A DNA stretch of 56,876 nucleotides, filler included, from Sluysia triapertura (taxonomy: Eukaryota), in assembly GCA_046118255.1 (NCBI GenBank). It is 4 parts of 4 records of this genome, joined end to end, with 100 filler letters (N's around TTAATTAATTAA, not from the genome) between each part and the next. Parts side by side here need not be neighbours in the genome. Positions count along the whole stretch, not along the records: positions 1 to 17,442 come from JBJNIA010188720.1; positions 17,543 to 28,662 come from JBJNIA010188610.1; positions 28,763 to 41,031 come from JBJNIA010124191.1; 1 more part is not named here. One strand, given 5' to 3'. A model generated the notes under the pieces. It ran no database searches. It saw only the letters and a list, made by a program, of their open reading frames with translations, and was not told the DNA's origin. Every line of letters starts with the position of its first letter. Position 1 is the stretch's first letter. A program made the translations under genes and the position numbers. Positions 8 through 29,011 of this stretch are shown in pieces.

Positions 8-43
8 CCAATGGCTGGCCATCGCTGGTAAGTCCAGTACGTT
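8..43 (+). repeat. Bulged stem-loop motif, subfamily 1 (3' end degenerate)
   Basis: CCAATG GCTGG CCA TCGC TGG TAAGT CCAGT A CGTT. Confidence 0.75.
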
Positions 44-71
44 TATACTATTCTCACACCACTTTTCACAT

Positions 72-106
72 TATTATTGTTGTTATTATTATTATCATTA
101 TCAACA

Positions 107-157
<51 letters not shown>
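72..157. repeat. (ATT)n microsatellite
   Basis: Direct reading. Similar tracts at 2808-2857, 4288-4380, 16025-16085, 16225-16280, 17374-17442, 33650-33712, 34688-34735, 37746-37808 and 56828-56876. Confidence 0.95.
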
Positions 158-158
<1 letters not shown>

Positions 159-1931
159 ATTTAGGTTTTCTGTTAGAAATGTCTGATTTAAGTGTTATTG
201 TGTTTAATTTTAAAGAGATTTAAGTACTTCATTTGCATTTTGACATTGTTTTATTTTAAATTAGATATTTACATAAAATCTGTATGAATCAATTGAAAAT
301 ATTTAAATATCGATTGCATATTCAACACTAATGGCGAAAAAAATTAACTTCGTGACTTAGTTTTTTATTAGTTCGTTCCTTAAAATGGCCTTATAAAGTA
401 TAGATAAATTTAGTGACATTGAAGCAAGGAAAATAATGTTATATATAAATTAAAAATTAAAAATTTTATTTTATATACATAAATTCATGAATTTGTACAT
501 TTATTAAACATTTCCTTAAAAATGACAAAAGAATAACGAAATTTTTCAAAAAAGAAAATTGTTTTCGAAAAAATAAAATAATGTTTATAAAATAGAAATC
601 GAAAATTCTAGAATGTCCTGAATTCTCCTTAGTTGCTAGTATATATACTGGCATCAGTTCAGTTACCACAAGAATTATCACAATTTAGTATTGCAATTTA
701 AAATCTCTATTTCAAGATTTTACAGAAACAGTCATTTTAATTTGGAAATATTAATTTTTACAGCGATAATCATTTTAGTTGTCTCATTTCAGATCCATTT
801 ATTTATTTGTAATTTGGTAAGTTATTTTATTGTAAATTCGATTTCAGCCTGACTTAGTGAGGGTTAACATCTGACTTAAAATATTAAATTGTACAAATTA
901 AACGTTCAAAAAGGTAAAAACAATTTAAGAGAAGTAAATCTTCTACATAAAACCCTCCATCAAATTAAGTAATACGTACAAAATTGATTTCTCGTTGATA
1001 AATTGTCATTTATAGTTCAGGAACGTCCATAAAATTACAGAAAATTTATTACTTAAATGAAGATTAATTATATATTGTTATTTTACAAATTTGATATAAT
1101 CCTTGAAGGTTTAAATTTAATTTATCTAATAATCAAGAAAACTTAAGATCGTTCATCCAGTTTTGCGAATTCGTATTATAAGAATACTAATTTATTCAAT
1201 CTCATATTGTTAAAATTAACTACCACTTAAACTACTTCAGATATCAAAATATCATATCCAGTTTACTGCTTTGTACATGAATATGAATATCATTAATATG
1301 GGCGGATAATAGACTTTCTTTAGCAGCTGGTATATGGGCTTTAGATCTATAATCATTAAAATCAACCAAATTGGAAGCTGATATATTAATCAATCTTGGT
1401 AATTTCTGATTACATAAATACTGTATCTGTTTAGAATTTAATTCTGTTTCGTAAGTCATTTCTACTCAGTTGTTTTATTGATTAAACATTTTTAATTTTT
1501 TAATAATAATAATACATAAATAAATTAATAAAAATTACAAAATTGAAAGTGAAAGTAATAAGCAGAAAAACGTAAAACACGAAAAAATGTCAAAAAATCA
1601 ATTTTTAAAATAGTTCTGATTATGATTATTTGACTGATTGTTGAAACAATCTAAAATGCCATCGTCTACATTGTCACTATTTAAATTTTGTGTTTCTTTA
1701 TTATTTTTTTAACTATATTATCGAATGATTTCGAAAATACACTACTACCAAGACTATCTTTTTTTTCGTCGCAATATATTTATCAGTATCACTTATGTTT
1801 CCCATTGTATTATGTTTAAATTCTAAATCTGAATTCGTTTGATTATAATCATCATTATCTATCGAATCATAATCACAGTCATTTAAATTATATGTTGATG
1901 AATCATGATTCATGTCTTAGACTTCATAAAA

Positions 1932-2616
1932 TGGATTGACCGGGGATCGAATCCGAGATCTCTTGCTTCGCAGTTCGATGAATTTAACACATTTATTTCA
2001 ACAGAGAAACAAGTTGTACATATAAAATATAGATAATCAAAATATATGTATAAATATAAATAAAGATAAATTGTGGGGATCATAAGAAGGATTGTTACTG
2101 TTAGTGACAAGAAAATGTTAATAAAAATGAAAAATGCTGCATAAAAGTTGATGTATAATGTGAGTAAACAATATACGTGTCTCACAAACATTCAATGAAA
2201 TTGATAAGCAAATAAAGTGGCTATGATAAATATAATGAAAGACAAACATACAAAATAATGATACAGAAAATGTGAAGGGGAAGGAAAAATACATTTAAAA
2301 AATGAGGAAAATACATAAACTGAAAAAAAACAGAAAACGGAAGAAGACAAGAAAAAGGGTAAAGATAAATGAAGAATTCAATGAAGTGGAAATATGTAAA
2401 AGAAAAAAAGCATTTTAAATTGTTTTTGTTTTATTTATTAAAAAAAATAAACACTAGGATGAAATTAAAATAAAAGACTGCGGAAATAGGGAAAAATAAA
2501 ACAAATTGATTAAATTATAAAGGAGAGCATAAATAAAGATAAAATAAAACACCCAGAGTAGGATATAAGAAATCCGCCAAAGGTGAAAAACAATTTGCAA
2601 AACAATACGGGTGTCC
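1932..2616 (-). pseudogene. tRNA-like copy interrupted by a 632-bp insert (1981-2612)
   Basis: 1932-1980 matches the 3' two-thirds of the 31790-31861 gene including the TTTT-ATGAAGTCTAA tail. Homology resumes at 2613 (gtcccgtctaacaatt...agtcaat) and continues into the shared upstream flank. Confidence 0.75.
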
Positions 2617-2808
2617 CGTCTAACAATTTAATGTAGTCAATATTATACATGGCACTTTAGGCCTTCACCCCAACGCATATAAGAACTCTTAGATTTTTGT
2701 CGTTTTGAAATGGATTTTACAGATCTTGATTTAGTATTAATTCTTTCACTACTTTAGCTAGTATGTCTCATATTTTTGCTATTGTTCTATTTTTGTTATT
2801 ATTCTGTG

Positions 2809-2858
<50 letters not shown>

Positions 2859-3395
2859 GTTCTTTAGTTATATTATCTTTTTTTCAATCTTAATAACGTT
2901 AAATAAATTTTATTATAATATATTTTGTTATATGCATCATCGCGATAATATAACTAGTTTCTAAAATAGTATTCGTTATGTATGGTTTGTATTAGTTTGT
3001 ATCTCTATTTTATCGAAATATTCGACCAATACTTCTCGACTTACTAATTAAGCTCAAATTTCCTTCAAAACTACTTAGATATTTTTTAAAATCATTAAAA
3101 ATCATTAGTTTGATTTATTTTTATGAATTATTTCAACGGATGAATTAAAAATTAATAATTTAAAAAAATTTCAGTATTTATTTATTATTTTATGACAATT
3201 ATATTATTAAAATATAATATTAAACCCTTAGTATTTCCAAACTCGAAATAGCTTTTCAAATAAGGTTTCTTTCCTCGAGTTCAAGGAAATCGTAGAATTT
3301 TCACACGTTTGTACATCTTTTGTACAGTTATTTCCTAGGTAAAGCCACGTGGTTACAAAAGCTTATAAAAGAGGTATTTATCACAAGAACTAGAC

Positions 3396-3772
3396 CATTG
3401 GTCTTCACACTTTTTGTACTGCGACCCACTTTACGAGTCCAAATTTTCACGCAACCCCTAGGGACCAAAATAAAAATAATAAAGTAAATTTTTTAGCACC
3501 TAAAAATTAAAATATATTTAATAATAACATAATAGAATGTACTCTTGTGGAGACTGATTTTTGCATTAAGAAAAAATTTATTTATTTTGTCGTCTAATAA
3601 TATCAATAAAATAAAATAATAATTGTATTAAAAATTATTTAAAATTAAACTTCTCCTATTTAAAGAATATTTTCTTATGAATACTTTATTATAACTGTGA
3701 AATTTCTCGTAACCCCAAAAAAATTTTTTGCTACCCACTGGTGGATCGCGCCTCGCCTTTTGAAGAACACTG
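3396..3772. mobile_element. hAT (Charlie-like) MITE
   Basis: Termini CATTGGTCTTCA / TGAAGAACACTG, 8-bp TSD aactagac/aactagat (7/8), subterminal GCGACCC-type motifs. Confidence 0.85.
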
Positions 3773-6476
3773 AACTAGATAATTGTCAATATCGATTAGT
3801 ATGTATTAGCTATAATAATAATAATATCTAATCGCAGATTATACCTAGTTGAACTGTAATTTGTGACACATTGTAAGTATATTGGATTTTTTCATTATAT
3901 TAAATGCAATAATTTAAATAGTAATTTTATATATTTATTTAAAATATAAATGTGTCTATCTCAATTCTAAATACACATTAAATATAGTAAATATAAATAT
4001 ATTTAAAATAAAATATTGTGAAGTCTATATTTATTAATTAGTTATATTTATATATGTGATAGTTAAATGAGATGCTTAAATAATACCAAAAAAGACAGAA
4101 GAATAAATAAAGTTTTAACTTTGAAAAATTTATATATAACAATTTATTTATAAAAATATCAATTAATCTACACTTCGTGTGTAATCGAATAAAAAACATT
4201 GATACCAAATGAATTAATAAATGTAACATAACTTTCTATTTTATTATTTTTGTAGTTATGAAATTATGCACATCTTTAAACAATCAAATTATTATTATTA
4301 TTAATATTATTATTATTGTTATTATTATCATTATTATTATTGTTATCATTGTAATTATTATTATTATCATTATTATTATTGTTAGAATATAAATGGAAGT
4401 TGTTATGATTTTATAAGATTTTATGTCTTTGATGATGACTTCTACTTTGCTTGTAGGTGTTAAGATTATAACTTGAGTTTAAGATGGTTATTCTAACACT
4501 AATAATACTACCTGGATGTTACTGTTCACTCGTCTCTGGTGTAAGAGATGGAAATGTAGCTTTATTTGATTAAAAATCTCTGTCCTCTCCTTTTAACTAA
4601 ATGAAATAAGGTAATCGAAACACACTAAGGTTAATTTATCAAATATAAATGCAAAGCCAAAAAATTTGGATAATATTCGCAATATAAAATAAAATACCAC
4701 ACGTAGTTATATTTTGGGTGTTCGTGAATATTTTAAAACTATGTTTACATTTAACACTTTAATTATTTTAAATGTTATTCTGATAAAGATAAAATAAAAA
4801 ATATTTAACTGTTAATGTAACTCAAATCATAAATGCCTTCGATAAAAATCTTTACTCGAGCTGCAACTGAATATCTTAGTCTCTTCTCCAAGTAACACTT
4901 GAAATCTCCATTTTTGAATAATAATAATTATACCTTCTTCTTCTTCAAATAATAATTGCACCTTCAAATAATAATAATTTCTCCTTTTTGTTGTTTCTTT
5001 AAATAAGCTTTTTTGGACTAATAGTTCTTCTTATCTTTTTGTAATAGTAATTTTATTATTTTTATTTTTATTATTTTAAATTTATTATTTTTTCTGCAAT
5101 TTAATTTATTTATTATAAGTTTATTATTATTCTCTACAATGTATATTGATTATTATTTTTTTCATAAAATAATAAACCTTTAATAATAATAATAATGAAG
5201 AAAATGACAATAGGCTTTTGTTATTACTTTTTATCATTACAATGGATACTTTTAACTATTTACTATAATGATGATATTAATAGGTTTTTATTTTTACGAT
5301 ATGTGCTTTTATTGACTATTCGCTTTTGCAGTGGTCCTTTGTCATTACTTTTATCATTATTCTATTACAGTCTCTTAGGACCATTGTTCTTTAGAATATT
5401 ATTCTTGTATTAAGTATTTTATTTTCTAATTTATTTTAAATTTTGATTTTTTGTTTTTGAATTTTAAAACGAAAATTTTTTAAAATATTAATTTAACATA
5501 ATAATATTAATTCGATAATATTAAATTCAACATTATCATCATTAAATTTAAAAAACAATTAAATTTACAATGAACCTTATTTAATTGAAGTCTCAAAATG
5601 TCATAAAAAGTAGTTGCACATACACAAATATTTATATTCCATTTTTAAATCCACCAATTTCTTATTTTATGAATTGGCGCCTTTTATTTATCATTTATAC
5701 ATTATATAATTTTATATAAAATTATACCTCATTACACATCACTTTTGTTATTTATTTATTGTATTTATCAACATTTTCAAAAAAATCGATCTTTTAAGAC
5801 AATGTTAATTAAAAATGTTTTAAATTACAAAAAAACCATTATTAGAAAATACATATATAAATTTCACAACTACGCTTTAAAATAGTTTAACAGTACTGAC
5901 ACTTTTGATAAAAATATTATTGCATTTTTCATTGTTTCATGTAAGTATTCTAATAAAGAAATATCAAATATAATGAATACTTATTAAGACTTATAATTAT
6001 GAATTTAATCAATTTAATAATAATTATAATTATTATTAAATTATAAATTATTAAATTATGAAAGCCGTCATTTGCTGCAACATATTGTAAATATACAAAT
6101 ATAATATTATGCAAATACAAAGGTCATTTTGGAGTCATTAAACAAAGTTATTAAACAAAGGTCATTTTAGTCATTTTAAAGTTAAAGTTATTAAGTTAAT
6201 ACAGATTTTGATTTTAAAGTTATTAAAATTCAAATATAATATTAAAGTTTTCATTATAGTTATTGGATTAAATTTTAATTGTTGGAAATTTTATCAAATT
6301 AATTAAAAAATCGAATTAATTAATTCGTATAATCGAACCAGAGTAAAATCAGCTTTATATTATTTTCAAAATCATTAAAATCAATAAAATCATCTTGAAG
6401 CCCTAAAATCTTATTTATTAAATTGTTAAATTATTAAATTATTAAATTTGTTTTCTTGCATATAAGTGATAAAAAT

Positions 6477-6525
6477 CCAACGGTTGGCCATTAAGTTTGT
6501 AAGTCCAATACGTTGGTGGACTCAC
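6477..6525 (+). repeat. Bulged stem-loop motif, subfamily 1
   Basis: CCAACG GTTGG CCATTAAGTTTG TAAGT CCAAT A CGTTGG TGGACTCAC. Confidence 0.85.
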
Positions 6526-6874
6526 GTTTTATCTTTATTTTATTTTATTCGCAAAACTCGTAGAAACCTTGCAATAATATAAAATGTAATACAAAAAAAT
6601 TAAAGATCATTACGATTTGATTATAAAATCATTAGTTCTGTTTATTTTATTACTCTGTTCTGCAATATCTTAATTTCACCCGACTGTTATTAATTTATTA
6701 ATACATTTATATTCCTTTTTGAGTTATTATTTAATAAAGAAATTTAATAAATAATAATAATAAAATAATTGAATAAAAATAAAAATAATTTAATATAAGA
6801 CCCTCTAATTTATTTAACAAGTTTTAGTTTAAGTTAAAACATAAATGTTTTACATTAAGACTAGCTTAGAGTTT

Positions 6875-6925
6875 GTTACAGGAACGCCATCTGTACGATG
6901 TTTACTGTAACCGGGTCCTGCTCAA
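6875..6925 (+). repeat. Bulged stem-loop motif, subfamily 3
   Basis: GTTACAG...A CTGTAAC CGGGTCCTGCTCAA; the inner stem is degenerate. Confidence 0.7.
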
Positions 6926-7308
6926 TTTTTATTTTTGCCGCAAAAATAAACTTTTTTCAATGTATAGCCCGCGGGCTATAGGCAAGAAAATGCGGTATAT
7001 TATTATCGATTATAGTTACATTTATAACATTATTAATTATATATATTATCAATATTATTTTTCCTGGTAATATTAATGTTAGGTTGTCATCATAACCCTA
7101 CAAAATAATTTTAAGATGCCATGATGGCACCTTAAAGTTATTTAAAACTATTTAAAATTATCAAAAAATTTAGTAAAATCATAGAAAAGGTTTTAAAACC
7201 ATTTATTAATCTTTAAAATTACTTAAAACAATTATTTTCTAAAAACTAAAATAAAATTTCTAAAAAAGAAAATTAGCTTCTAAAAATAGAAAAGAAGCTT
7301 CTATAATG

Positions 7309-7366
7309 TTCTAGAATATTCTAGAACATTCCATCGATTTTCTCTGGATGATGACTAGTATATAAA
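7309..7366 (+). promoter_or_regulatory. Heat-shock-element array followed by a TATA box (possible solo-LTR promoter)
   Basis: TTCtaGAAtaTTCtaGAAcaTTC (five alternating nGAAn units, 7309-7331) and TATATAAA at ~7359-7366. Confidence 0.5.
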
Positions 7367-7849
7367 TTAGCATCAATACAATGAAAATCGCCATTTGTAA
7401 ATCACTGTTGTTGAACAAATTCACAATCATTTTGGAATTTAGTTGATTTTTGTACCCAGCAGACAATATCCGATTCAAAATCCATGCTCCAAGTAATCTG
7501 TTTTTATTAAATTGATAGTAACTTCATCGAAGGAAGCTAATATCTTAAAATACACTTAAATTATTATTTTATTTAGTAAAGTTTAAGTTTTCCCGGATAT
7601 ATTGAGGGCTAAAATACAGAGAAAAGTTTAAATCTAAAAATAAATCTAAAGTTAAAGATGACATTAAGTTTCAACTTTAATATATTTAACTATGCTTTTA
7701 TTTCTATCACCTTCTTTTATTTTTAGAATTTTTTATTATTTGACCATTGTAATAATTAATAAATTTTTATTAATTGAATAATTTTGATTTCGTTTATTGC
7801 ACTATCTAATTTATTAGTTAAAGATATTACGTTTTAGTTAACTCATATT

Positions 7850-7907
7850 GTTACAGAAGTGCCCTCTTTACGGCTCAAGACGCTTACTGTAACCGGACCC
7901 TGCTCAA
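7850..7907 (+). repeat. Bulged stem-loop motif, subfamily 3
   Basis: GTTACAG AAGTG CC CTCTTTAC GG CTCAAGA CGCTT A CTGTAAC CGGACCC. Confidence 0.8.
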
Positions 7908-7980
7908 TTTTCTATTTATCTTTATGTATCAGTAAAAACCACAGCATTAATATAACGCTATTAATTTTGTTAAATTACAA

Positions 7981-8229
7981 TATGTTGGCCAAAATCAAGA
8001 GTACATAACATGGGCAGAAAAAAACTCATTACAATTAACTTGGTGACTATCGACATTGTTAATTAACTTCGTGAGTATCGAGCATAATTGGTATTTGGTG
8101 ATTAATTGGCACAGTTCATTTTCATATTTCGTGGCTACTGAGTGCGATCAGATATTGGCATGCGATAATTGATTTATTTTATGATTTATTTATGGGCACA
8201 AACAAATAATTCAATTTTGGCCAACCTAT
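7981..8229. mobile_element. Mariner-like MITE
   Basis: TIRs tatgttggccaaaat / attttggccaaccta enclosing ~250 bp of non-coding sequence. Confidence 0.6.
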
Positions 8230-10553: not shown

Positions 10554-12150
10554 TTTAATGCTCTTTAGATCATACTTTAAATATTAATAATTTTTTCTAT
10601 AAAAAATCAATATTTAATTAATATAATTTTAAATTTTTTATATTTTGTAAAATTTTATAAACTAATTTAATTTCATTTTATATCTATGTGCATAAATTTT
10701 AGGGCAACGTTTTTATTTTTAATCACTTTGTTGAATTTAAAAAATTCAAGCTTAATAATATTCAATAATTAAATTCAATACTTCGATTTCTTCTTCAAAC
10801 GATTCTGAATACTTTCTTATGTCAATAAATTAATATATACTTGTAATAATTAAACAATTAGGCTTTCAATACAAATTCTGTAAAACGGTAAATGTCTTTA
10901 AGTTAATTTATAATAGATTCCCAACTTTAGTCAATACACACCTCAGTTCTCAATAATACTTTAAAAATCTTCACTTATATAAATTAGTGTTAGTCAGAAA
11001 CAACCTAAACTTTCTATCGTTTTAATATTCAATTAATGCTTGCTTATTCTATGCAGAAGTCTGAGTTCTGATGCTCATTCCGATGACCTGGAATGGAAAC
11101 GCAAATAAGTTTTTTTGTTTTATTTGCGAGGATACTCGACTTTGATTTCGATCGTTATATGAATAAATATTATTTTGTCTCACTTTATTTTATTTTGTTC
11201 TATTTTGTTTTATCCTTCCTTTGGGTTCTCTCTTTCTACTTAACAATTAATTAATAAAGCAATAAATTCACAAAAATTTTATTCAACAAAGATTTAAACA
11301 CTTAATAACAAAATATAAAATGACGAATAGTTTAATAATGATAAATTTTAATATTAATAAAATGCAATCTTTTAATTTTTCAGACAAAAAAGGAATAATA
11401 ATTACCGTGACGTTCAATGTTTGGTCCAGTTAATAAAGTTCAGAATACTCGAACGAATTCCAAAATATGTGTGAACTAGTGTGTCAAATTCTGTATCAAA
11501 TACTATGTCAAGTATCTGTCAACTTTTAAAATTCTGTGTACTATTGTCCCGGACTTTTAGCATATGCATAGGAAAATTCTACCGCACTCAAACGGTTAAA
11601 TTAAAATATTCAATAACATGTTAATTTTTATACAATAAGATGTTAAGGCAAATTGCAATATTTCTTCAATTTGTTATTTCGATAATTGCAATTCCTCTTA
11701 GTTTATATTTAAATGTGTTTTGTTTGAATACGTTAAACAATGCAATTTGCACCAATTTTATATTGTTCTATTAATCATGCTATAAAAGAAATTAACAAAA
11801 CAATTTACAAATATATTTATGGTACTGAAATAATTTCTATTACGATCAATGCAATTTATAACTTAAGGTCAAATACGATAAGTGATTTGTATGTCTAAGA
11901 CGACTGTTTATTCGGAATAAATATGTCATTCATATGTGTAATTGTTATCACACTAAGTTCACTTTTACCTGTTATTTATACACAACATCTTTTAAAATGA
12001 ATACTCGTACATTTGATATATCAAATGATATAAAATTTTATGATGAAACATCACCTCCAGGTTCTTTAAAATGTATAGTTTTAGAAAATGTAAATGAAAG
12101 AATTATATAGGTGTGATTTTTCTAAGTTTTAACCTACGGCAAAATATATT

Positions 12151-12208
12151 TTGAACAGGATTCGGTTACAGCAAAGTACTTACAACGTATAGTGGGAGTT
12201 CCTGTAAC
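12151..12208 (-). repeat. Bulged stem-loop motif, subfamily 3
   Basis: Reverse complement GTTACAG GAACT...TAAG...CTGTAAC CGAATCCTGTTCAA. Its upstream flank shares taagaccct and tagctta with the 6875 copy. Confidence 0.7.
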
Positions 12209-13344
12209 TTTATAAGCTAATATTTTATCTGAATACAAATGCTCCGTAGTTAGGGTCTTAACAAATGCTCAAATAGTGTAATTTTCTCACAATTTTAATA
12301 ATTTACTCTAAAGATTTTAATAATTAAATAGAAACGAAAATATTAACTTTCTTACACAAAAGACAAAAGTTTTCTAGCAATAACAAAATAAAATGCAGTA
12401 TTTTAGAGATTAAACTTCCAAGAGCGTTTAATCTAATAACTAATCTAATGATTGAATATAGAAACTTATGTTGGGATTGGTGAAAGGTAAAGGTAGATAT
12501 TAAGGTTCAAGACTCAGGATAACAGAATAAGGTGAACGTTATTGAGGAATTGAGATAGGGGATTATGATGAATTGTAATGATAAGATAGGTATATGAAAT
12601 ACTTGAATCAAGATAAAACAATGAGAAATACGAAGATTTAAGTTGTCATTCCAGCTTTTGATTTGTTTTTAAAGAGTAATTTGTGTTGTTATATTGTTAA
12701 AAAGAATAATCTGTATTTTGTTATAAAGAGTACTTTGTATTGTCGTTGTCATAAAGAATAATTTATATTTTGTGATACTTCAAAGAATATATCGAGATTC
12801 TGAATTTGTTTAGTTATTGGGTTTTGATTAATAATTTGTAAAATAAAAATTATTTTATCGAACAAATTTGAAAAAATAATAAATTTTACAGACATTGTAG
12901 ATACTTTGAGAAATTTATACAACAGAACATTTTCCTTTTTTTAAACAAGCAAATGCAAAAAAATTACTTTGTAAAATGTTGATGTGGTGTTAATTAAAAA
13001 TTTTGTTTGGATTTTCAGATTATTGAGTTACGAAGAATAAACAGCTGCAAAGAAAAGAAATGAAGATGTAAAAAAACTGATGAAATAAAGAATATTATAA
13101 ATATGTATCTTTATAGTCACAAGACTGTATAAAGAAAAACAAAGAGCAGCAGAGACATCATTTTTTACTTTGATTTGGCAACCATTTTGGTATTACAATT
13201 ATATTGAATTCAGCGATTTGTTGATTTATTTAAAGCAGTTCTATCCTTCCAAATATTCGTCACAAGAACATTTTGATCTCGAGCATTCGATTAGAGAGAT
13301 CACAATTTCTAATTATCTTATATATTAAGTAGTAAGTATATTTT

Positions 13345-13640
13345 AAATAATCTGTAGACTCGCAAGAGTTAAAATATCGATTTAAACGATTTAATTTTCA
13401 GTTGGTCATTAAGGCCAATTATAAAATATAAATCCATTTTACCGAGTCCTTTGGCTAGGCCAACTTATTTAAAATTATTTATTTGTATCATTATTATATT
13501 ATCATTGCTTATATTGTTATTTTTATAAATTTGTATTTACATATTTTATTTCCTTGTGCAACGAATTTTGATATAATATGCTGTCGATAATTTTAAAGTT
13601 GTGATTTATTAGGATTTAACGTAAAAGTTACAATACAAAT
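13345..13640 (-). repeat. Dispersed repeat, decayed Gag-like coding fragment (copy 1)
   Basis: Clear nucleotide homology to 19000-19310 (ttttcagttg..., tccatt..accgagtcctt). Minus strand reads KDSVKW...FIIGLNDQLKI. Confidence 0.55.
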
Positions 13641-13710
13641 TTATTAACAATATTGGAAATGTTTCTTCTGAAAACTTCAAAATCTTAATTCTTACCTGCA
13701 AAATATCTAA

Positions 13711-14300
13711 GGAGTCTATCTGCCTAATATATACGATTTATACCACTGATGGAGACGCATTATTAGGATTTTTATAACTTATAACTTAACATTAACAATC
13801 GGTTAATGTTACTTTTAATAAATTAATTTGATTCGAGATTACAAATTATACAACCATTTTATTAAGGTTGTTTAGAAAGCAATGAATTATTTTAAGTAAA
13901 ATAAACTAATAACCCTACAAAATTTATTAACGTTTATCTTATAAAAAATGCGTATGTATAAAACGCGTAGTTTACGAGAAAACTTGTTTACAGAAAATGT
14001 AATATAATAAAAATATGCAACCTTAGTTGACTATGGATAAATTTTACTTGAAAATTACCCAACACTCTTTAAGGTGTTGGTACAAAAATGTTTAAAGTAT
14101 TTTGAGTGTATTTTGATATTCCCAGAGATTATGGTGAATATATTAAAACATATCATGTAAAAAAATTACTTAATAGTTATGGATTTTCGGCAACTTGATT
14201 AAACTTTTTTGGATTATGATTCTCTTCTAACTCTGTTTCTAATTTTCTGTCTGGTGTCCTTCTAAAAACTTTTTTAATCTATTTATATTGAAATTACGTA
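13711..14300 (-). mobile_element. Element end: CAAC/AGGTGTTG hairpin array plus subfamily 2 stem-loop (13711-13767)
   Basis: Reverse complement CCTAATA ATGCG TCTCCATCAGTGG TATAAAT CGTAT A TATTAGG CAGA. Body collinear with 25692-26500. Confidence 0.7.
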
Positions 14301-14879
14301 AGTGACCATTTTCTTAAAAATAACCTAAATAATTTATTTCTTCTTTGTTTGATTTCCTAAATAATTTTCTTTATAATTACCTAATATTTTCTAATTTTTA
14401 ACATTAATAATTTTTTAATGTTTTTTTAATATTTTTAATATTTTAACTTTAATATTGAATATTTATTATAATAATTGCAATTCATAATGTGCGTAATTCA
14501 TAATGTGTGTAATTCATAATGTAAATATGTTGTTTATAGATATAGATTTTAAATTCGTGTATTTCATAATTCAAATTGTTGTATAACTCATAATTTAAAT
14601 ATGTTGTTCAAAAATTATTTATAGATTTTAAAAGCAAAAAAATCAATATTGAATTCAATAATAACATTGTTTAATATATTTAATCTTTGGATTCATTTAA
14701 TATATTTCAATGCAAATTAGGTAAGATTTTATTTTAAATTTTAATAATTTTAATATAATAATTTTTTAATTTTTAATTTTGATAAATCTAATACATTTTA
14801 ATACAATAATTTTAATAAATTCTTTTAATGTAAAGGGGTATATTCGTTTTAATTTATTATATTTGTTTTAATTTGTATT

Positions 14880-15496
14880 GTTTTAATAACTCCAAGGTCA
14901 TTCATTTTGTATAAATAGATGACCATTTTTACCATAAAAAACCATAAGTAAATCTTTATAAAATTTTTCAATTGCTCCAAGAAGAAGGGAACTATTTTGA
15001 TTACCAGAGGATCCAATTTTTATTAAAAAACGTTATCTTTAGTTTTGTACTATTAAGTATCTTCACAGTATTTATAATCAACTTAAACTCTGGACATAAT
15101 TCCGCTACTATTTCAGAGTAGCTTATTAAAATCAATTATTTAAAAGATTATTCTAAGAAAAGATAATCTTTTATCAGTATAGAATTTTATTTGTATTTTA
15201 ATAAAATATTTTGTATTAATTGTTGAATTTTAATCACATTACAGATTCTAGTAGGAACCTTATTAAAATCATTAATTTAAAGTTTCAATTTAAGAACCAA
15301 ATTAAACTATCAACAGGTTCAAAGTAAGAACCTCAATAAAATACAACTAAAGTTATTTATCATTTTTTGTATTAATAAGAAAATTGAATATTGAAAAAGC
15401 TTCACATTTAATTAACGTCTCCATTTACTTTAAATTTTTGATAGAAAATCCAACGGCTGGCCCAAACCGGTAAGTCCAGTACGTTGGTGAACTCAC
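14880..15496 (+). mobile_element. Element end: GAACCTTATTAAAATC array plus subfamily 1 stem-loop (15450-15496)
   Basis: Body is the reverse-complement homologue of 22450-23200 and 24100-24830 (gaacc arrays, gctact...agtagc hairpin, aggtca/tgacct). Confidence 0.75.
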
Positions 15497-16245
15497 GTTA
15501 AGCTAAGCATTTTATTTTAGAATCGTAGCAATATTATTGCGAAATTTTCCTAAATAAATCCAATATAATTATTTTCAAGTCATAATAAATTGTCAGTTTC
15601 AAATTTCATTTTGCAGAATTTCAAAAAATAAATGCTTATATCTAAAAATTAAGAAATATTATAAAAACATTTAAAATTATATATTTACCAGTTTTATAAA
15701 CACTGATTAATAAAATAATATAAAACCTTACAAATAATTTTTAATTTATGTCAAACGATTTAATAATTAAATTTATTAGGTATTAGTAACATTGTAACTT
15801 ATACTAAAGTCAAACTAACATCAAAATGTATCTCTTATTCGACATTATTTCAAAATTAATTTTTCGATAAAGTATACAAAATTATTTGAATCCAAGATGT
15901 AGAAACTGTAATTCACTTACAAATTAAAAAATTGGAACCAATAAATGCAAAAATGCCACAAAATTTTTTTCTATGTAAATATTTCATTTCGACATAAAAG
16001 TCTAATCACATACATTTATATAAAATAATAATAATAATAATAAAAATAATAATATCATAATAATAATAATAATAATAATAATAATCATAAAATACATAAC
16101 AAAAGTGTTAAATATCACAAAATGATGGATACTAAATACTTAGACAAATTACAACAAAATAACTCCATTTTAAATTTGTGCGCGACGATACACATTTAGT
16201 AAAACAAAAGAACTGTGTAGTTAATAAATAATAATAATAATAATA

Positions 16246-16281
<36 letters not shown>

Positions 16282-17372: not shown

Positions 17373-17442
<70 letters not shown>

Positions 17443-17542
17443 NNNNNNNNNNNNNNNNNNNNNNNNNNNNNNNNNNNNNNNNNNNNTTAATTAATTAANN
17501 NNNNNNNNNNNNNNNNNNNNNNNNNNNNNNNNNNNNNNNNNN
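17443..17542. other. Assembly gap with artificial TTAATTAATTAA six-frame-stop linker (also 28663-28762 and 41032-41131)
   Basis: The same 100-nt N/TTAATTAATTAA/N block occurs three times. Confidence 0.95.
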
Positions 17543-18381: not shown

Positions 18382-18999
18382 ATAATTTAATAATGGCTAT
18401 TCAAGTTGGTGAAGGTAAAGACAAGGTGACATTTAACAAAGATCATGGAAAATACTCAATCTATTAGCCCTTTAGACGATTTTGAATCTAAAGTAATTTT
18501 TATTTTTTATAATCATCAACTATATAATTTTGATTCTTTTTATTTAAGGAATCCACATCCGGAGAAAGTTATTAAGTGTCCAAATGCAAATAGTTCATTC
18601 AACATCATAAATGACTGTATAACTTTAAATGTTTTTATAGTATTTGAATTTAAAATAGTAAAAAATATATCTGTGTTTTGTCTCGGCCTTTTCATTAAAA
18701 AGTTAAATATATGCAACAAAATTAAAATTAATTCCTTTACATTTTTAAATCATAAAAGAGAAGTTTTTAAAGTAATCTTAATTAATTTTAACGAATTATT
18801 TCATATTAAAGACATAGTTAAAGTTTTTAAACATCTTTTAACTCCAAACAACTAAGCTTTAAAGACATCATTTTTGGTTATACAATATCAACAGTGCGAA
18901 AAAATTTAGTTATCCCAAGTCAAATCAAATTATTTATTCAATCAATATCAATTTATATTATAGAACATTGTTAAATAGTAAGTTTCCTTTAAACAGTTG

Positions 19000-19310
19000 G
19001 TAAACTTGTAAGAGCTATAAAATCAACGTAAGCGTTTCAATTTTCAGTTGATACCTAAGATCAGTTATAAAATCACTTTACACTCTAAAATCCTATTAAT
19101 TTTCGTTGGTCCATTTGACCGAGTCCTTGGACCAGGCAATTTTATTTAAAATCATTTATTGTTATTATTATTATTGTTTATATTGTTGTCTTGATAAAAT
19201 TCCAATTGTATATTCTATTTTAAAAAACAAAATTTTATACAATACACCTTCTATAACTTTTGACGAAGTGATTTGTAAAATTAACGTAAAGTTACGATAT
19301 GAATCTCTTT
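19000..19310 (-). repeat. Dispersed repeat, decayed Gag-like coding fragment (copy 2)
   Basis: Homologous to 13345-13640. Minus strand reads IAWSKDSVKW...FITDLRYQLKI. Confidence 0.55.
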
Positions 19311-19562
19311 ATAACATTATAATACTAAAAAGCTTAAATTTAAACTATTTTCGTATAAAAGCGCGTTGGTCACATTGTATACTGTGTGAATTGGGATATC
19401 GATTTTTGGCCATAGTGTCCATTAATGTAATACATATAAATTCGTGAATTAAACTTTGTTATTGTAATATTTGATACAGAATTGAATTTAAAATCATTAA
19501 AGAAACACGTCATTGCACGGACATTGTTTATATCGTTATCCCTTAGGCATACCTTCACGTTA

Positions 19563-19606
19563 CTTTCAGATACGCCATTGTTAAGACGCATACTGTAAGC
19601 GGACTC
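19563..19606 (+). repeat. Bulged stem-loop motif, subfamily 3 variant
   Basis: CTTTCAG ATACG CCATTG TTAAGA CGCAT A CTGTAAG CGGACTC. Confidence 0.65.
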
Positions 19607-21629: not shown

Positions 21630-22396
21630 CAATATACTCTCAAAATTTGGCCAATTTTAGAAAAAAAATTTTTAAAATCAATAGAAACCTAAATTTGTCC
21701 AAATTCTGCTTTTGTCCAAAGATCTTTAGATTTTACATTATATGAATTTATAATTTTAAAAACTTCAAAAAGAACGCAAACACAAATTTTTAATTAATTG
21801 ATTTATATAAATAAAAAAATGTTGAGCCGTAATGAGAAAAGAAAGATGTACAACATTATCTGATAATGAAAAAATTGAAATTTTGAAATATAATGAGTTA
21901 TATTCTTTACTTTCAGACCGAAGAATAGCGGACATATTTTCGGACATATTTTCATTTAAATGTAAAAAAACAATTTCAATTAAGTCAATTAATAATTTGA
22001 AATTGAACAAAAAACAATATTATTGAAAAATTCGAAGATACATTTTTGATCAAACCTAAGGAAAGGGAATTAAAGTTTGGAATTATTGACAATTGTAAGA
22101 TAGAATGGGTAGATTATTCAGATGGTGCAATATTGGCAGATAAAATAATGACTGAGAAAGCTTTAAAATTTGCAGAAATTCACAATGTAGAAGAATTTAA
22201 AGTTTCGCATGGATGGTTACGAAAGTTTAAGACCAGACATCATCTTGATCTTAAAAAGTTACATAGGGAAGCACAATCACATTTAAATGTTAATTATGGT
22301 GATTTCAAAAATATTCTTCAAAACAGAATCAATGCACATGAAACCGGAATTTTCTAAGTTTGCAAGAAAATGTTACGTGAAGAATAAAATTACAAG
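21630..22396 (+). mobile_element. Tigger/pogo (CENP-B-like) DNA transposon, 5' part, decayed transposase
   Basis: RCTTLSDNEKIEIL (psq-type HTH), KALKFAE...EEFKVSHGWLRKFKTRH (CENP-B HTH), INAHETGIF (degenerate NxDETG). TA-flanked TIR-like start near 21630; truncated by the hairpin element at 22397. Confidence 0.85.
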
Positions 22397-23210
22397 GTGA
22401 GTCCACCAACGTATTGGGCTTACTGACTTAACGGCCAACCGTTGGATTTATCTACTAATGCAAAAAAGGTCAAAACTTTATTTGTATCTTATAATAATAC
22501 AAGGAGGTCTTAACTCTTTTGAATAAGATTTTAATCTGATTCTTTTCTAGAACCGTTAGTAAATTTAATGATTTTAATAAGGTTCTTAAATCGAACCTTT
22601 AAATTTAAGTAACTGATTTTAATGAGGTTCTTACACAGAACCTATTAATTTAAATATTTTAGCTTGTAAGAAGATTTTAATAAGGTTCCTTCAAATGAAC
22701 CTGTTCTATTACTCGAATAAAAAATAAATTAAAAGTTAAAAGGTTTATTATGAACAAATAATTATATATGACAATTTTAAGATATACAAACGATAAGTTT
22801 AATAAGATTATATATAATCTTTAGAAAGTAATTTAGTGAATATTTTAATTAGCTATCGCTAAAAGATAGCTTTAATGAAGATAAATTTATTTTAAGTGGA
22901 AAGTTTAAAAATGCAACGATAAATGTTGCTACAAAACTTATATATACAAAACTAACGATCAAAGAGAAAAAACTGTGAAGAGTATCGTTCGAAGAGTTTG
23001 ATGAATCGTTTGGTGAATCGTTGAATGGCTTAGCACTTTGTATTCGATTTAATTGCCGAAGTTACAAGGAAGATTGCGAATATACTGATAAGATAGCTGA
23101 TGAAAATAACTTGTAAAGAGAAATCACTCGAATGTGTATAAAATTTTTTTGTGAGTTAGATGTTAATTTTTATGGTTTTTATATTAGGTCAAATGACCTT
23201 GATAGTAATT
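22397..23210 (-). mobile_element. Element end: AGGTTC/GAACC hairpin array plus subfamily 1 stem-loop (22397-22445)
   Basis: Reverse complement CCAACG GTTGG CCGTTAAGTCAG TAAGC CCAAT A CGTTGG TGGACTCAC. Three or more GATTTTAAT(A/G)AGGTTC-N-GAACC units at 22550-22705. Confidence 0.8.
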
Positions 23211-23619
23211 TAAACAAACAATAATAAAATAATTTAGACAAATAACAAAATTTAAACAATAAATATTGAAAAAGATTGTGACAAAATAATTAAAATACTA
23301 AAATGATTAAAATTAAAAATGTGACAACATAATTAAAAATTTAAAATATTAAAATGATTAAAAATAAAATTAAAAAATTCTTACTTTAAATTATATTATC
23401 CTAATTTTCAAATTAACTAATTTTTCAAATTAAAAATTATTTCAAAATGATTAATGATTTATTTATTGTATGTCTAGCTAAATTCTGTGTTTTAAAAATA
23501 GATTCTAATTTAAATGTGTGTAAATTCTATAAAGATTTGTTACAACAAATTGATTTACTAAAAATAGATTCTGATTTACATAAATTCTAATTTACTTCTA
23601 TAAATGATTTGATTTTTTG

Positions 23620-23860
23620 TACAACATCAACACTTCTAAAGGTTTTTCAAGTCAATCTCAAGCTTCCACATGATCCCAAATCTTTATATAGGTCTTTTGA
23701 ACCTTAAGATATTCTTTAGTTGTTAAGATTATTAGAAATGTTTTCTTTTTTATGATTTTTATTTCAACAATGTTTATAATATTCCATCTATCACTTCTCA
23801 TCAATTCTTCCTTCATTTGTAATTATATATGTTTTTTACTCTTATCCAAATCCAACGTTG
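23620..23860 (-). repeat. Dispersed decayed coding repeat of unknown family (copy 1 of 3)
   Basis: Reverse-complement homologue of 40340-40680 and 53237-53570. Shared frame approximately IINIVEI.I.K.KT..IILT.KEYL. Confidence 0.7.
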
Positions 23861-24057
23861 GACAATTCCATCATTATTACCAATATTATTATTTTTCTAT
23901 TTTTAATTTTTAAACAAATTTTGGCTACTTAAAATAGTAGCTAAAATTTGATTAAAAATATATAATTCTTCTGTTGGTAGTGAGAATAGCATATACTGTG
24001 AGAACAGTATATTTTGCTGGGATTTTTCTTATCCTAGTCTTAAGAATACAATTAAAT

Positions 24058-24830
24058 ATGAGTTCACCAACGTACTAGTCTTACCGGTCAGGGCTGAAAG
24101 TAGTTTTTTGTGATTGTAAAAACTTAATGATTGTGGAGGTTATTTTAAAAAGTAGTGGATGCTCTAGTCACTTAAATTTTAAGATAATCACAAAATTTAG
24201 AAGTTATTTTCATGAGGTTCATTAAAATGAACCGAATAATTTTAAATAGGAACTTTTAAATAAACAGGATTTTAAATAGGTTTTAAACTGAACCATTAAA
24301 ATTAATCAGTGTTGATTTTAATGAGGTTCTAAAATGAACCTTAACTTTTTCAGATGTGAGATTTTGATGAGGTTCCTAAAATGACCCTTAAATATTATAC
24401 TTTAATGAATTAACAATTTTTTATATTAAATAAAAAATGAAATGAATAATATTAACAAATGATAAAAATAAAAATAATACAACCTTATATGGATTATTTA
24501 CAAATAATCCTGTCTCTATTTATTTTGGTAAAATATTTTAATGAGCTACTCAAATAAATAGTAGTTGTTTCAAAAAATTTAAAAAAGTTTACGTAAATTG
24601 CTGAAAAACCATAATAAATTAAACTAACGATACCTATCTAAGTTCTGTAGGTTTTGAAAAAATAGGATTTGTAAATAACTGTCGTTGAAAGAATAGGAAC
24701 TGCAAACGAATAAAATTGTCGTAGAACAAAATGTTATTAAAAACTTTATCTTGCTAACTTGTTAGTATTGTTGTGTAAAGTTTATGTTTTGTGATGCTTT
24801 AAATATTAGAAAAATGACCTTGAAGGTCAA
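24058..24830 (-). mobile_element. Element end: AGGTTC/GAACC hairpin array plus partial subfamily 1 stem-loop (24058-24096)
   Basis: Four array units at 24205-24390; collinear with 22397-23210. Confidence 0.75.
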
Positions 24831-25691
24831 ACATTTTTTAAAACAAAATTATAATAATTTTAATCAAAATAATAAATATTTCCTTAAAGATATTAGATTA
24901 AAATTTTATTAAAAATATTTCAAATTAAATTTAAAATATCTTACTTTTTTAATATTTAATTCCAGTTATTATTTACACAAGATATTAATCTGAAAACACA
25001 TTAATTATTGATCATATATTGATTTAATTAAATTCATATTTACAATTTATTAACACACATTCAATTGATACAAATTATTAACAATCAACACTTCATATTT
25101 AGACATTTAATTGATTTTTATTTGTTTTAATTTCGTCAATTATGTTATACAAACTGGAGTTCACTGGCAGGAATGCAAATGAAGTGAAGTGTGTTGACGG
25201 TTTCAATATTTGTCATTTAAGTAATGTATTTGTGGTGGTCCAGCCCACACCTACATACACATCACATAAATCACACCAATAAATTACTCAAACCTCACCA
25301 TAAAAATTGCATTACAAGTCTTGTCCATATCATCCACAGCATCACATCATTCATTGTTACAAAATTACAGATGCCTCATCAAATTCCTTTTATTAACATT
25401 TTAGATCAAAACATTAAACAAAACGCTCATTGTCATCCTGTCATCATTATGACGCAGCATCTTCTAGTGTCTCACAGTTTTCCATTTTTATTTTCCTTGT
25501 AATTTTATAAGTGCATAACTGTACTATTTTACAATTATATATTTTATATCCCAACAATTTTATAATTTTATAGAATATATTTTTAGAAAAATCACTAGTT
25601 GTAACTAGTAAAGATTTTTATTTGAGGGCAATTAGTAGAAGCATGGTTTAAATATGCTAGTATTTTCTTATACTTAACAAATTATCCGATA

Positions 25692-26500
25692 GGTCGGTCC
25701 GCCTAATATATACGCTTTATACCAAACTTGGAGACGTATTATTAGGTTTTGAAATTTTAAAAACTTAACTTAAAGTCCAAATAAATCGACTGGTTCGAAT
25801 TACTACACTTAGTGTTTATCTAATACTTAAATTAAATATCTTACAACTAAATAAAACTTAATTCGACTATCTAAGTCGTTAGATTTTAGTTATGTTTCAC
25901 AACCCTTTTATTAAGGTGTTGTTAAATAAAAGTAGATTACACAACTCCCTTAATGAGATGTTGTATGGACAATGTTATTTTAGGATTTTACACAACCTTT
26001 CTTTAGATTAAGGTGTTGTTAGATAAAAATAATTTTAATGTTTTATTTAGTTGTTCAATTTACAATTAACTTATTTAGATTATCAAAAAACAAAAGTGGT
26101 TTAACTCTCCAAACGTGTATTCTAAATCAAAAAACACAATTCTTACAAATAAAGTTTATAATAATAATATGCAATTTAAATAATTCAACCCTGAGGTTGA
26201 TTAGAAATTCGAGTTTAAAAACAGAAATTACTCAACCCTTTCGTTAAGGTGTTGACAAAAATGGTTCTTTTAATTAAGTATGATTTTAAATATCCCTAGT
26301 AAGGTGATATTATGAATCCTATATATAAAAAAATTTCTTTGAGTTTCTTAATAACATGGACATGGAAAAGTTTTATCTATATCTGGATCCAAAATGTAAA
26401 TTCTTCTTAAACTTTCTAACAATACTAAATTCGTGTTGTCTTGTTTCCTTCTTGAGTTTAGTCTAAAATTTTATTCTTCTATTTATACTAATGTAATTTT
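25692..26500 (-). mobile_element. Element end: CAAC/AGGTGTTG hairpin array plus subfamily 2 stem-loop (25692-25746)
   Basis: Reverse complement CCTAATA ATACG TCTCCAAGTTTGG TATAAAG CGTAT A TATTAGG CGGACCGAC. About five caacc...aggtgttg units at 25900-26260. Confidence 0.75.
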
Positions 26501-27117
26501 CTTGATAATTAATATTTTTTCTTAAAATAATTTTTTCCTAAAATAATTAAATAATTAAAAATTTACCGAGATATTCTAAAAATAGATCCAGATAATTTAT
26601 TTAGTCTAAAGAAACAAATTTCTTTATTTTAAAATTAATTCTTTATTTTTGATTTATTTAAACGAATTTCTTTGTTTTAAAATCAATTATTTAAAATAAT
26701 TTAATTTAATTTAATTTTATTCAATTTTAATTTTAATTATAATAATAATATTAATAATAAAAACATTTTAAAATATTTACACATAAAAATACATAAAAAT
26801 ATAAAAACACTTTTAAAATACTTTTACAATACGATCAATGATAACGATGTAAAGAATAAAGAAAATAAGACAGGAAACTCTAATAACAATTTGAAAAAAA
26901 TGACAATGAGACGAGAAAAGTCTGTAAAAAACCCAGAGGACACCAATGAATTGGAAACTGTCATCTACACCATGATGAATTCATGTAATCCTTTACAATT
27001 ATTCAGATCTGAAATGTCGACTGAACATAATAATACAAAATTGGTCATTTCGTCAGAAAAAGAAAATATATGAATTATTTAGTAGATATAGAAAGAAATT
27101 GGTAAGGGAAAACTAAT

Positions 27118-28600
27118 ATGAAAGTTGTAATGAGGATAGATGGAACAGAACAAAAAATAGAAAATGAATTTCGTGTCGGAGTAACAGTGTCATCTCTACA
27201 GGATTTCGTAAAAACTTATTTGAATACAAGACAAAGAATAAGTTTGTATTATAGAGGAAGAGTATTGGACAGAGATTATGGACTATATTTAATTGATTTC
27301 GGATTCCCAATAAATCATCTAAGCAATGATGATGAAATTCAAATTAGAATAGGATCCCAGATTAACCATAATGCGCGGAACAACGGAAAGGCAATCACAA
27401 TCCGTTAATCGTGATTTTTTCCGTGAGGTATTTAGAGAATTATCAATAAAAAATCAACAACGAGAAAGATTACTACCCAGACGAGTACAACCAACTCACT
27501 TATTCGAAGAAACATATTATATGATGAAGCGAAGAATAAATTGTAAAAATAAATTTTGCATAATAGTAGAATTTAAATGAAAAAGTTATAAAGCATTATT
27601 AGATACAGGAGCAACCCATTCAATAATTAGATACCAAATTTTGACACAAGAAACGATGATCATACCTCATCGTCGATCAACTATAGCTTCTGTTACTGGC
27701 AATCAAATTATTTTTATAGGAAAATTAGAAACAGAAATTTCAATTTCACGAAAAGTCATTAAATGTGGAGCTAGAATACTCAAACACTGTCTATACGATA
27801 TAATAATCGGAATGGACATAATAGAGCAAATTCCGGAGATATTAATACAAAAGGGAACCGAACTATGGAGTAGAAAACAAGCACTCTTAAACGAAGAAAG
27901 AATACTAATGCTCCACAGAAGAGAACCAAGTCCACACAAACATGATAATTTATATGAATAATTGGAAGACGCGCTGAAATATCCTGTAAATGCAATGAGA
28001 TTTAAAGTCGTAATCGACATTGTTTTGGAATCAGGGGAGTTATACATGAATACTCACATCTCAAACACCGATTAAATGAAATCGGTTACCACGTCGAAGA
28101 GCAAAATATACCAACTACTCTGTGATATAAGAGATCATGAAAGATATATATAGGAAGATTGATTAAGGTAAAAGTAAGAGTGGAAGGGCAAAACATGATT
28201 TTAGAAAAGAACTTTGGTATTAATAAAGATATAGATTTGCTAAAATCATTTGTAGAGGCTCGAGCGGGTGTTTCCGAAGAGATCGAATTTGCTTGAAGAT
28301 ACATAATTACCAGATTATGGATTCCCGATAGAGTTTTTTAACCGTTCAGAATGAAATTATTGCAATAGTAAGAAATAATGAAAATGATGTTTCCTATAAA
28401 ACAAACTCTTTAACCATTATTTCGAAATGTGGAGAGAAAAAGAAATACAAAACCAGAAGAGACCGATTTCTACCGCCACGAAAAAGTAAACATTTCTATA
28501 TGGTTCAGGATAAAGAAAATCATAATACCTTTTTATCAACAATCGGATTCAATGGAAAGAAATATACAGGTCTAATCGATACAGGTGTTGCGTCTTTAAA
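27118..28600 (+). pseudogene. Tandem duplicated ubiquitin-like domain + retroviral-type aspartic protease (Ddi1-like architecture), disrupted
   Basis: Unit 1: UBL-like TVSSLQDFVK...ISLYYRGRVLD...LIDFGFPI, then K*KSYKALLDTGATHSII...YDIIIGMDII (DTG 27602-27610). Unit 2: IKVKVRVEG...LLKSFVE...LPDYGFPI, then RDRFLP...GFNGKKYTGLIDTG (28578-28586). Contains stops and frameshifts; cut by the gap at 28663. Confidence 0.7.
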
Positions 28601-28962
28601 GCTTATCAAATATCAAATTCGCTATTAAAATCTTATTTAGTTAAAATCTTAATAGTTTCAATNNNNNNNNNNNNNNNNNNNNNNNNNNNNNNNNNNNNNN
28701 NNNNNNTTAATTAATTAANNNNNNNNNNNNNNNNNNNNNNNNNNNNNNNNNNNNNNNNNNNNTCATAAAATCGATTTTAAACTTCATTGCCCCTAAACTA
28801 CTACTTTTGTTATTATTAAATTATTAATATTTTTATATTAAATTGATATTTTAAACTGTGACTATTACATAAGAACATCAATATCAACACTTGAAGTTAA
28901 CATTTGGAAATATTAAAACTAAAAATTTTTTTTGTGACCTCCATTTCATTTTTTAAGAAAAT

Positions 28963-29011
28963 CCAACGGTTCGCCATTGAGTTCGTAAGACCAATACGTT
29001 GGTGAACTCAC
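28963..29011 (+). repeat. Bulged stem-loop motif, subfamily 1
   Basis: CCAACG GTTCG CCATTGAGTTCG TAAGA CCAAT A CGTTGG TGAACTCAC. Confidence 0.85.

Follow-up and report, generated by a model that had tools for sequence, protein, structure and literature searches.

A selected, unclassified bulged hairpin in three divergent repeat subfamilies of Sluysia triapertura, a candidate mobile-element end signal

Introduction

In HINEs, tandem repeats occupy the centre, a palindrome lies 8-35 bp short of the end and there is no target-site duplication (TSD) (PMC4067079), and the ends of Helitron2 elements display compensatory changes (PMC3627910). In the pMV158 origin, tandem binding repeats are paired with a nick hairpin (PMC10288648), and Replitrons are placed in plants, algae and protists (PMC10288648, PMC5714925). 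Structured hairpins are also described in the tail of the long interspersed nuclear element (LINE) UnaL2, where the bulge is required for retrotransposition (PMC1636434), and in flatworm spliced-leader (SL) RNAs, in which two hairpins stand ahead of an interrupted U tract and the splice donor lies in the first of them (PMC12582326). We describe a bulged hairpin that recurs in a stretch of 56,876 nucleotides (filler included) from Sluysia triapertura (assembly GCA_046118255.1), referred to as the window, and compare it with these systems. Every count and conclusion on the hairpin refers to its 12 copies in this one window.

The hairpin is a real, selected and unclassified structure, whose stems have been wholly replaced between subfamilies of repeats while its shape and a few unpaired bases were kept. 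It is most probably a new version of a mobile-element end signal, filed in no family.

Results

Layout and distribution of the hairpin

All 12 copies reported in a preliminary description of this DNA are present. They fall into three subfamilies, F1 with six copies, F2 with four and F3 with two, and share a layout in register: an outer stem P1 (6-7 bp), an inner stem P2 (5 bp), a loop of 12-20 nt, the arm P2', one bulged base, the arm P1' and a tail. On the minus strand, where the preliminary description gave left ends, P1 starts at 12208, 13767, 22445, ~24104 and 25746. The copies, and one candidate thirteenth, are as follows.

8..69, plus strand: F1 copy; 3' arm of P1 lost, continues into an (ATT)n tract
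6477..6556, plus strand: F1 copy; hairpin at 6477-6516, then the tail and a U-rich stretch
6875..6938, plus strand: F2 copy; short loop, A-T(n)-G site 19 nt past P1'
7850..7912, plus strand: F2 copy; loop has GC in place of GT
12138..12208, minus strand: F2 copy; G bulge, A-T(n)-G site at +19
13697..13767, minus strand: F3 copy; A-T(n)-G site at +18
15450..15496, plus strand: F1 copy; hairpin and tail
19563..19606, plus strand: F2 copy; terminal P1 pair compensated, short loop
22360..22445, minus strand: F1 copy; downstream end adjoins a truncated Tc5/pogo-like open reading frame (ORF) at 22007-22357
24058..24104, minus strand: F1 copy; 5' arm lost
25677..25746, minus strand: F3 copy; clear second hairpin, A-T3-G site at +19
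28963..29048, plus strand: F1 copy; downstream end falls where a GC-richer block begins, and an assembly gap covers the upstream part
41425..41496, minus strand: candidate thirteenth copy; new P1 sequence, 24.5 bits with a covariance model (CM) of all families, under which junk matches reach 18

The candidate at 41425-41496 is a borderline match, in which P1 fits and both P2 and the tail fit poorly.

Ten copies are intact enough for testing and share the layout as it had been claimed; the F1 copies at 8 and 24058 each lack one arm, and the bulge, claimed to be an A, is a G at 12151. The signature bases of the preliminary description are those of a majority or of half of the copies, the apical CC..GG being complete in 6 of 12, the TAAG of the TAAG-N bulge exact in 8 and the YGRAC tail exact in 8. 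A GT stands 6-8 nt ahead of P2' in 11 of the 12, in seven of them as GTAAG, and a second small hairpin is predicted in seven. Further downstream, an A-T(3-6)-G site lies 18-19 nt past P1' in four of the six F2 and F3 copies; in its A-T(4-6)-G form the motif is found in 4 of all 12 copies, against a background of 0.11 per 60 nt. The copies are clustered, all 12 lying within 1-29 kb of the window (P ~0.004 under uniform placement).

Pairing, covariation and conservation

Pairs were counted in a MAFFT alignment of the ten intact copies, the broken F1 copies at 8 and 24058 being excluded. The claim that the stems change completely while pairing persists is borne out: 112 of 120 stem cells are paired (93.3%) and both sides have changed at 10 of the 12 stem pairs. 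Shuffled sequences pair in 65.9% of cells, with 0 of 500 shuffles equally high, a count that should not be read as a probability because the shuffle ignores relatedness and the copies represent three lineages only. Controls in which the pairing partner was slid along the alignment pair in 30-43% of cells. More weight falls on compensatory changes between members of one subfamily, seen at one pair in F1 and at four in F2. RNAalifold, unprompted, recovers the same helix with 11 pairs and a covariation term of -3.9 kcal/mol. A descriptor free of stem sequence, tuned after the copies had been seen, matches the window seven times, against means of 0.13-0.18 (maximum 2) in three sets of 60 shuffles.

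Conservation within F1 follows the structure. Among its four intact copies identity is 93% in the stems, 100% in the fixed loop bases and 93% in the tail, compared with 44% in the variable loop, 59% in the flanks and 52% for random pairs. Because stems, fixed loop bases and tail are conserved so far above the variable loop, the flanks and random pairs, the data support a selected single-stranded structure. Wobble cells favour the written strand, as had been claimed (12 G.T against 3 A.C), but 7 of the 12 G.T cells come from a single position, an invariant R.T pair beside the bulge. Folded singly on that strand, copies are modestly better than shuffles (z from +0.9 to -2.2), and with RNA parameters the mean pair probability is 0.73 on the written and 0.51 on the opposite strand.

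Relatedness of the three subfamilies

The stems of subfamily representatives are identical at only 7-9 of 24 positions. That all three subfamilies score under one CM, as the preliminary description anticipated, is true by construction only, and hold-out models perform weakly: a CM of F1 alone gives the other subfamilies a best E of 0.53, and a CM of F1 and F3 finds three of the four F2 copies at E 0.06, 0.16 and 3.7, ranked 2, 4 and 16 among 22 non-training matches, and misses the fourth. Common ancestry is therefore likely and unproven, since these models rank the other subfamilies high without significance. The alternative, that three unrelated repeat families happen to carry hairpins and owe their common layout to convergence or to our search for a pattern, would account for the low stem identity and the insignificant hold-out scores. 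It seems improbable, given that helix lengths, bulge, the R.T and G-C pairs and the tail are all in register, that F2 and F3 have a P2 sequence in common and both carry the site at +18/19, and that F1 and F3 have an upstream motif in common.

The surrounding repeat unit

Larger non-coding repeat units of ~0.5 kb contain the hairpin as a module near one of their ends. The upstream motif, 12 nt long, AT-rich and starting ACCT, matches the window 20 times, and 12 of these matches precede a copy on their own strand by at most 600 nt, where ~6% would be expected. In three F1 copies each such match forms the tail of a short palindrome, and these palindromic units stand in a fixed order, one A, one B and three to five C. 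The C units have a period of 45-46 nt, and the array extends 345-459 nt upstream, with A at -345, -424 and -459, B at -303, -373 and -404, and C within -310 to -108. Module B has just three matches window-wide, all in these three F1 units. Spacers between modules do not align between copies and the upstream spacing varies, which reads as unlike a small nuclear RNA (snRNA) promoter. Both F3 copies have palindromic units of their own at -100 to -505.

15104..15345, plus strand: F1 upstream modules; A at 15104, B at 15146, three C at 15244, 15281 and 15315
22530..22871, minus strand: F1 upstream modules; five C, B at 22806, A at 22852
24205..24566, minus strand: F1 upstream modules; four C (45-46 nt period), B at 24492, A at ~24550
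13849..14080, minus strand: F3 upstream palindromic units of the copy at 13767, at ~-100 and -310
25897..26255, minus strand: F3 upstream palindromic units of the copy at 25746, at -170 to -505

On the downstream side, the F1 copies at 22445 and 28963 stay similar up to a point 86 nt from P1, which lies ~40 nt past the hairpin; toward the upstream side their similarity is ragged. The sequences that adjoin this common end are unrelated: at 28963 it meets the edge of the GC-richer block, and at 22445 an internal point of the pogo-like ORF, which is cut where, presumably, its catalytic domain would start. No full-length pogo relatives were found with which to map the insertion at 22445. The common end bears no long A-tail or terminal repeat, and no convincing TSD was found at the copies, which lie in both orientations amid transposable element (TE) debris.

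Several further arrangements were noted around the copies. Twice, at 13690-15500 and at 25680-29050, a minus-strand F3 copy precedes a plus-strand F1 copy, with their upstream modules facing; we rejected the idea that the two are ends of one element, as the interiors are unrelated. A palindrome at 23853-23870 resembles the two P1 arms of an F1 hairpin that has lost everything between them, and an A-type module lies at 23924. An inverted repeat of 14-15 bp (29035-29048 and ~30028-30041), ~1 kb apart, consists of the F1 downstream end and may be due to chance.

Other repeats and genes in the window

A smaller hairpin, which may be linked to the main motif, lies in both members of a pair of 390-bp repeats, 65% identical (13303-13654 and 18943-19318, plus strand).

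13392..13430, plus strand: related smaller hairpin, copy 1; covarying 5-6 bp stem, loop ends TAAG-N
19038..19075, plus strand: related smaller hairpin, copy 2, within the second copy of the 390-bp repeat

This repeat has a second conserved, GC-rich and foldable stretch (~13435-13465 and 19108-19138), and the repeat pair has no Rfam match. A tRNA-like element at 31790-31861 on the minus strand (Rfam 42.5 bits, not called by ARAGORN) has partial copies at 1917-1980 and at 43439-43495 plus 43779-43823, the latter split by an insertion of ~280 bp, and is possibly a tRNA-derived short interspersed nuclear element (SINE). A long inverted-repeat unit with a variable centre is repeated at 50055-50108 and 56643-56696 with 81% identity.

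Among coding sequences, the plus-strand stretch 27106-28600 holds two tandem frames that look ubiquitin-like (no Pfam match), with a retroviral-type aspartyl protease after each unit; the second protease ends abruptly a short way ahead of the F1 unit at 28963. The GC-richer block (29050-31560) contains broken frames and an acidic stretch, with no match in Pfam or NCBIfam. A broken frame at 46140-46750 (plus strand), gag-like by eye, adjoins a bicarbonate-transporter fragment at 46876-47148 (minus strand; Pfam E 1.6e-13). Searches of NCBIfam and Atlas with the unknown ORFs of the window returned nothing useful.

The window has ~25% GC, with (ATT)n tracts and gaps. It contains an IFT74 gene at 32500-39220 on the minus strand (32.5-39.2 kb), with introns of ~35 nt, weak donor sites and a last exon 52% identical to fish IFT74; an AG lies 1 nt ahead of its likely start codon. 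The proteins nearest to the IFT74 exon in protein libraries are animal, with a top identity of 56%, to a fragment, and no close relative was found there. The presence of IFT74 together with introns of ~35 nt suggests that the host is most likely a ciliated animal with compact gene structure.

Discussion

A candidate end signal of mobile elements

The preliminary description saw in the motif a functional RNA or single-stranded DNA structure of an unclassified mobile-element superfamily. Its first half is supported, as the fold is under selection; its mobile-element half has indirect support in the collinear upstream modules and the one shared end, and finds no help in TSDs, an empty site or ORFs for a reverse transcriptase (RT), HUH nuclease or recombinase. 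We consider it somewhat probable that the hairpin is an end signal of mobile elements of one kind or another, whether of the rolling-circle type or of the LINE-dependent type weighed below, because conservation is modular, one end is shared against unrelated broken sequence, orientation is mixed and spacing varies. Our tentative preference within this range is for non-autonomous, probably rolling-circle (HUH-type) elements, since arrays of palindromic sites stand beside one structured end that has neither TSD nor terminal repeat, and since HINEs, Helitron2 and the pMV158 origin offer analogies. The combination of a subterminal hairpin with internal tandem repeats, characteristic of Helitron2 and HINEs, is found here (~40 nt from the F1 end; units of 45-46 nt).

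From the fold, its covariation, the A-B-C(n)-hairpin order of three F1 copies and the downstream end common to two copies, we infer each step of the following mechanism. The hairpin would be the single-stranded signal through which a partner enzyme (probably an HUH nuclease of rolling-circle type) copies the elements, with the upstream palindromes serving as binding sites that differ by subfamily. The hairpin would form on displaced DNA, and the shared unpaired bases (CC, GT..AAG, the T-A bulge and YGRAC) may mark or position a nick or stop point. Each subfamily would descend from its own master lineage and retain only those signals that the partner enzyme reads, which could explain why the stems differ while the shape persists.

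Several observations weigh against a rolling-circle end signal. A Pfam scan of 84 reading frames of the window found no Rep/helicase, other HUH, RT or recombinase ORF, so that the element with an RT, HUH or tyrosine recombinase ORF that had been anticipated does not appear among them. There is no young near-identical pair of copies within the window. Helitron2 and HINEs insert in TT without a TSD, as empty sites would show, and a single test for an empty site found none. The shared downstream end is supported by two copies only, and the F2 copies have at most traces of upstream modules. Helitron2 and HINEs carry a pair of asymmetric or subterminal inverted repeats of 8-15 bp, and a search of ~1.5 kb around ten copies, using 12-mers with at least 4 G/C, gave no such partner consistently in any of the ten, apart from two isolated matches. 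The 3' end of Helitron1 has CTRR ~10-12 nt past its hairpin, and in ten copies CTRR is absent or scattered over 6-66 nt. DNA folding parameters show no preference for the written strand (0.58 against 0.60), and the known end hairpins of HUH elements are simpler than the present one. We also considered an IS200/IS605-type right end, in which TCAA/TCAC comes after a bulged hairpin whose 5' foot holds a complementary guide of 4 nt. It was rejected: TCAA/TCAC stands at +4 or +10 in six of ten copies, but the foot bases misfit this rule and similarity continues past the site.

Alternative explanations

An SL-like RNA gene family, which the preliminary description omitted from its candidates, fits several features. 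The copies would then be a cluster of divergent genes and pseudogenes for SL-like small RNAs of the Sm class, their promoter elements being supplied by the upstream motifs, each with a leader of 17-24 nt ending at the GT donor in the first hairpin, followed by the small second hairpin and an Sm-like site. The GT ahead of P2' does place a putative donor in the first hairpin of 11 copies, the second hairpin is predicted in seven, and the A-T(3-6)-G site of four F2 and F3 copies lies ~38-40 nt from the GT, within the SLIDR default of 20-60 nt (PMC7986045). The anatomy of flatworm SL RNAs is alike (PMC12582326), RNA folding prefers the written strand, and the copies are clustered. We find this explanation possible but doubtful, because the part that would form the leader's 3' end is the least conserved of all, at 44% identity in four F1 copies, and the base ahead of the GT may be T, G, C or A. 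A canonical Sm site is found in none of the six F1 copies, there is no consistent third hairpin, and no promoter element lies at a fixed distance. Loops that end TAA(G) are likewise present in the upstream units and in the hairpin of the 390-bp repeat, there outside any donor context; no SL family of Rfam matches, and the window holds no leader-only relic. A retroposon tail is another, rather unlikely, possibility. The retroposons would be SINE-like, and the hairpin would be the stem-loop at their 3' end that the RT of stringent-type LINE partners recognises in the RNA, with stems particular to each subfamily. Two stacked stems with a single bulged base are indeed the anatomy of the UnaL2 tail (PMC1636434), and LINEs can exchange stems with one another as long as these still pair (PMC4176376); the RNA strand bias, the defined downstream end with ragged upstream similarity, and one broken copy that continues into (ATT)n would agree with such a tail. 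However, the loop gives specificity in L2 tails and here varies for the most part within a subfamily, the bulge is on the 3' rather than the 5' strand, and ~40 non-repeat nucleotides separate stem and end, with no terminal repeat in the two copies whose end is defined. Neither a TSD, an RT ORF among the 84 frames nor a tRNA head upstream was found.

Ribozymes in repeats typically share unpaired bases while their stems differ wholly, and the replaced stems seen here fit that pattern. A loop-to-tail pairing of 2-6 bp can be drawn in F1, from the sequence and from a fold of the opposite strand. We regard an undescribed self-cleaving ribozyme, with the shared unpaired bases as its core, as very unlikely, there being no positive evidence for it: only two stacked helices are present, the pseudoknot lacks covariation across subfamilies, and no Rfam ribozyme matches. 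The core patterns of hammerhead, twister, hairpin and HDV ribozymes are absent from all 12 copies, and a loose SECIS pattern matches only the two broken ones. The earlier statement that the motif is not hammerhead, HDV, twister or SECIS thus holds, and it agrees with Rfam, where none of the copies is matched at gathering score. When the 11 copies from 6477 onward were searched with E relaxed to 10, only the copy at 6477 was touched, by two weak models unrelated to it. The matches listed from pattern searches of viral, metagenome and prokaryotic collections are chance matches. The F1 core was found 0 times in viral contigs; patterns of the unpaired bases matched at least 143 loci there, of which the best among the matches listed has 7 of 10 pairs, and none of the loci listed is a structural match with the same unpaired bases. 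Neither of two viral loci matching an F2 pattern has the full P2 and loop features, nor does any of the matches listed from at least 121 loci found with an F1 pattern in GTDB, and a metagenome pattern scan gave 31 matches, all without the 5' arm. A match to a catalogued TE end in Repbase or Dfam is possible. A number of other identities were rejected: a tRNA or armless tRNA (there is no 7-nt loop), micro-exons (splice sites are inconsistent across subfamilies), a solo long terminal repeat (no TSD), an attC-like site (no unpaired spacer), a Y/sbRNA (the U-tract is not at the stem foot) and a K-turn (no tandem G.A).

Significance and comparison with known systems

Stems that have been wholly replaced, around a shape and a few unpaired bases that were kept, indicate selection on a structure for which Rfam has no family. 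If the hairpin is a mobile-element end, it provides a structural handle on unclassified elements in a poorly sampled animal lineage and a substrate for finding their enzyme. If it belongs to an SL-type RNA, that lineage would practise trans-splicing with unusually variable leaders, and if it cleaves itself, it would represent a new ribozyme class. We think it unlikely that the motif belongs to a wholly undescribed class, be it the end signal of a new animal HUH-type superfamily in which a bulged hairpin accompanies iteron-like arrays, or a novel small structured RNA (a ribozyme or a variable-end SL).

Among described systems, flatworm and nematode SL RNAs (PMC12582326, PMC7986045, PMC7668243) resemble the motif in having a GT in the first hairpin, a small second hairpin, a U-rich Sm-like site 30-50 nt past the GT, several divergent types and clustering; they differ in that the leader 3' end is variable here, without the AUG end of the flatworm type, and that F1 has no canonical Sm site. 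The tails of UnaL2 and ZfL2 (PMC1636434, PMC4176376) likewise have two stacked stems with one bulged base, and in them too pairing outweighs stem sequence, whereas in our copies the bulge is on the other strand, the loop is variable and there is no adjoining terminal repeat, RT or tRNA head. Replitrons and the rolling-circle origins of plasmids and viruses (PMC10288648, PMC5714925) place repeated binding sites beside an end hairpin, as here, but the present units show no short direct terminal repeats and no Rep ORF was found in the window. With Helitron2/Helentron HINEs and DINE-1 (PMC4067079, PMC3627910, PMC5148889, PMC11417382) the repeat units have in common their non-coding nature, internal tandem repeats, a subterminal hairpin tens of nucleotides from a T/A-rich end, the lack of a convincing TSD, and families that share structure more than sequence. 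Unlike Helitron2 and HINEs, they show no pair of asymmetric terminal and subterminal inverted repeats (ATIR/subTIR) and no RepHel partner in the window, and their hairpin, the longer one, has a bulge that is fixed and loop bases that are conserved.

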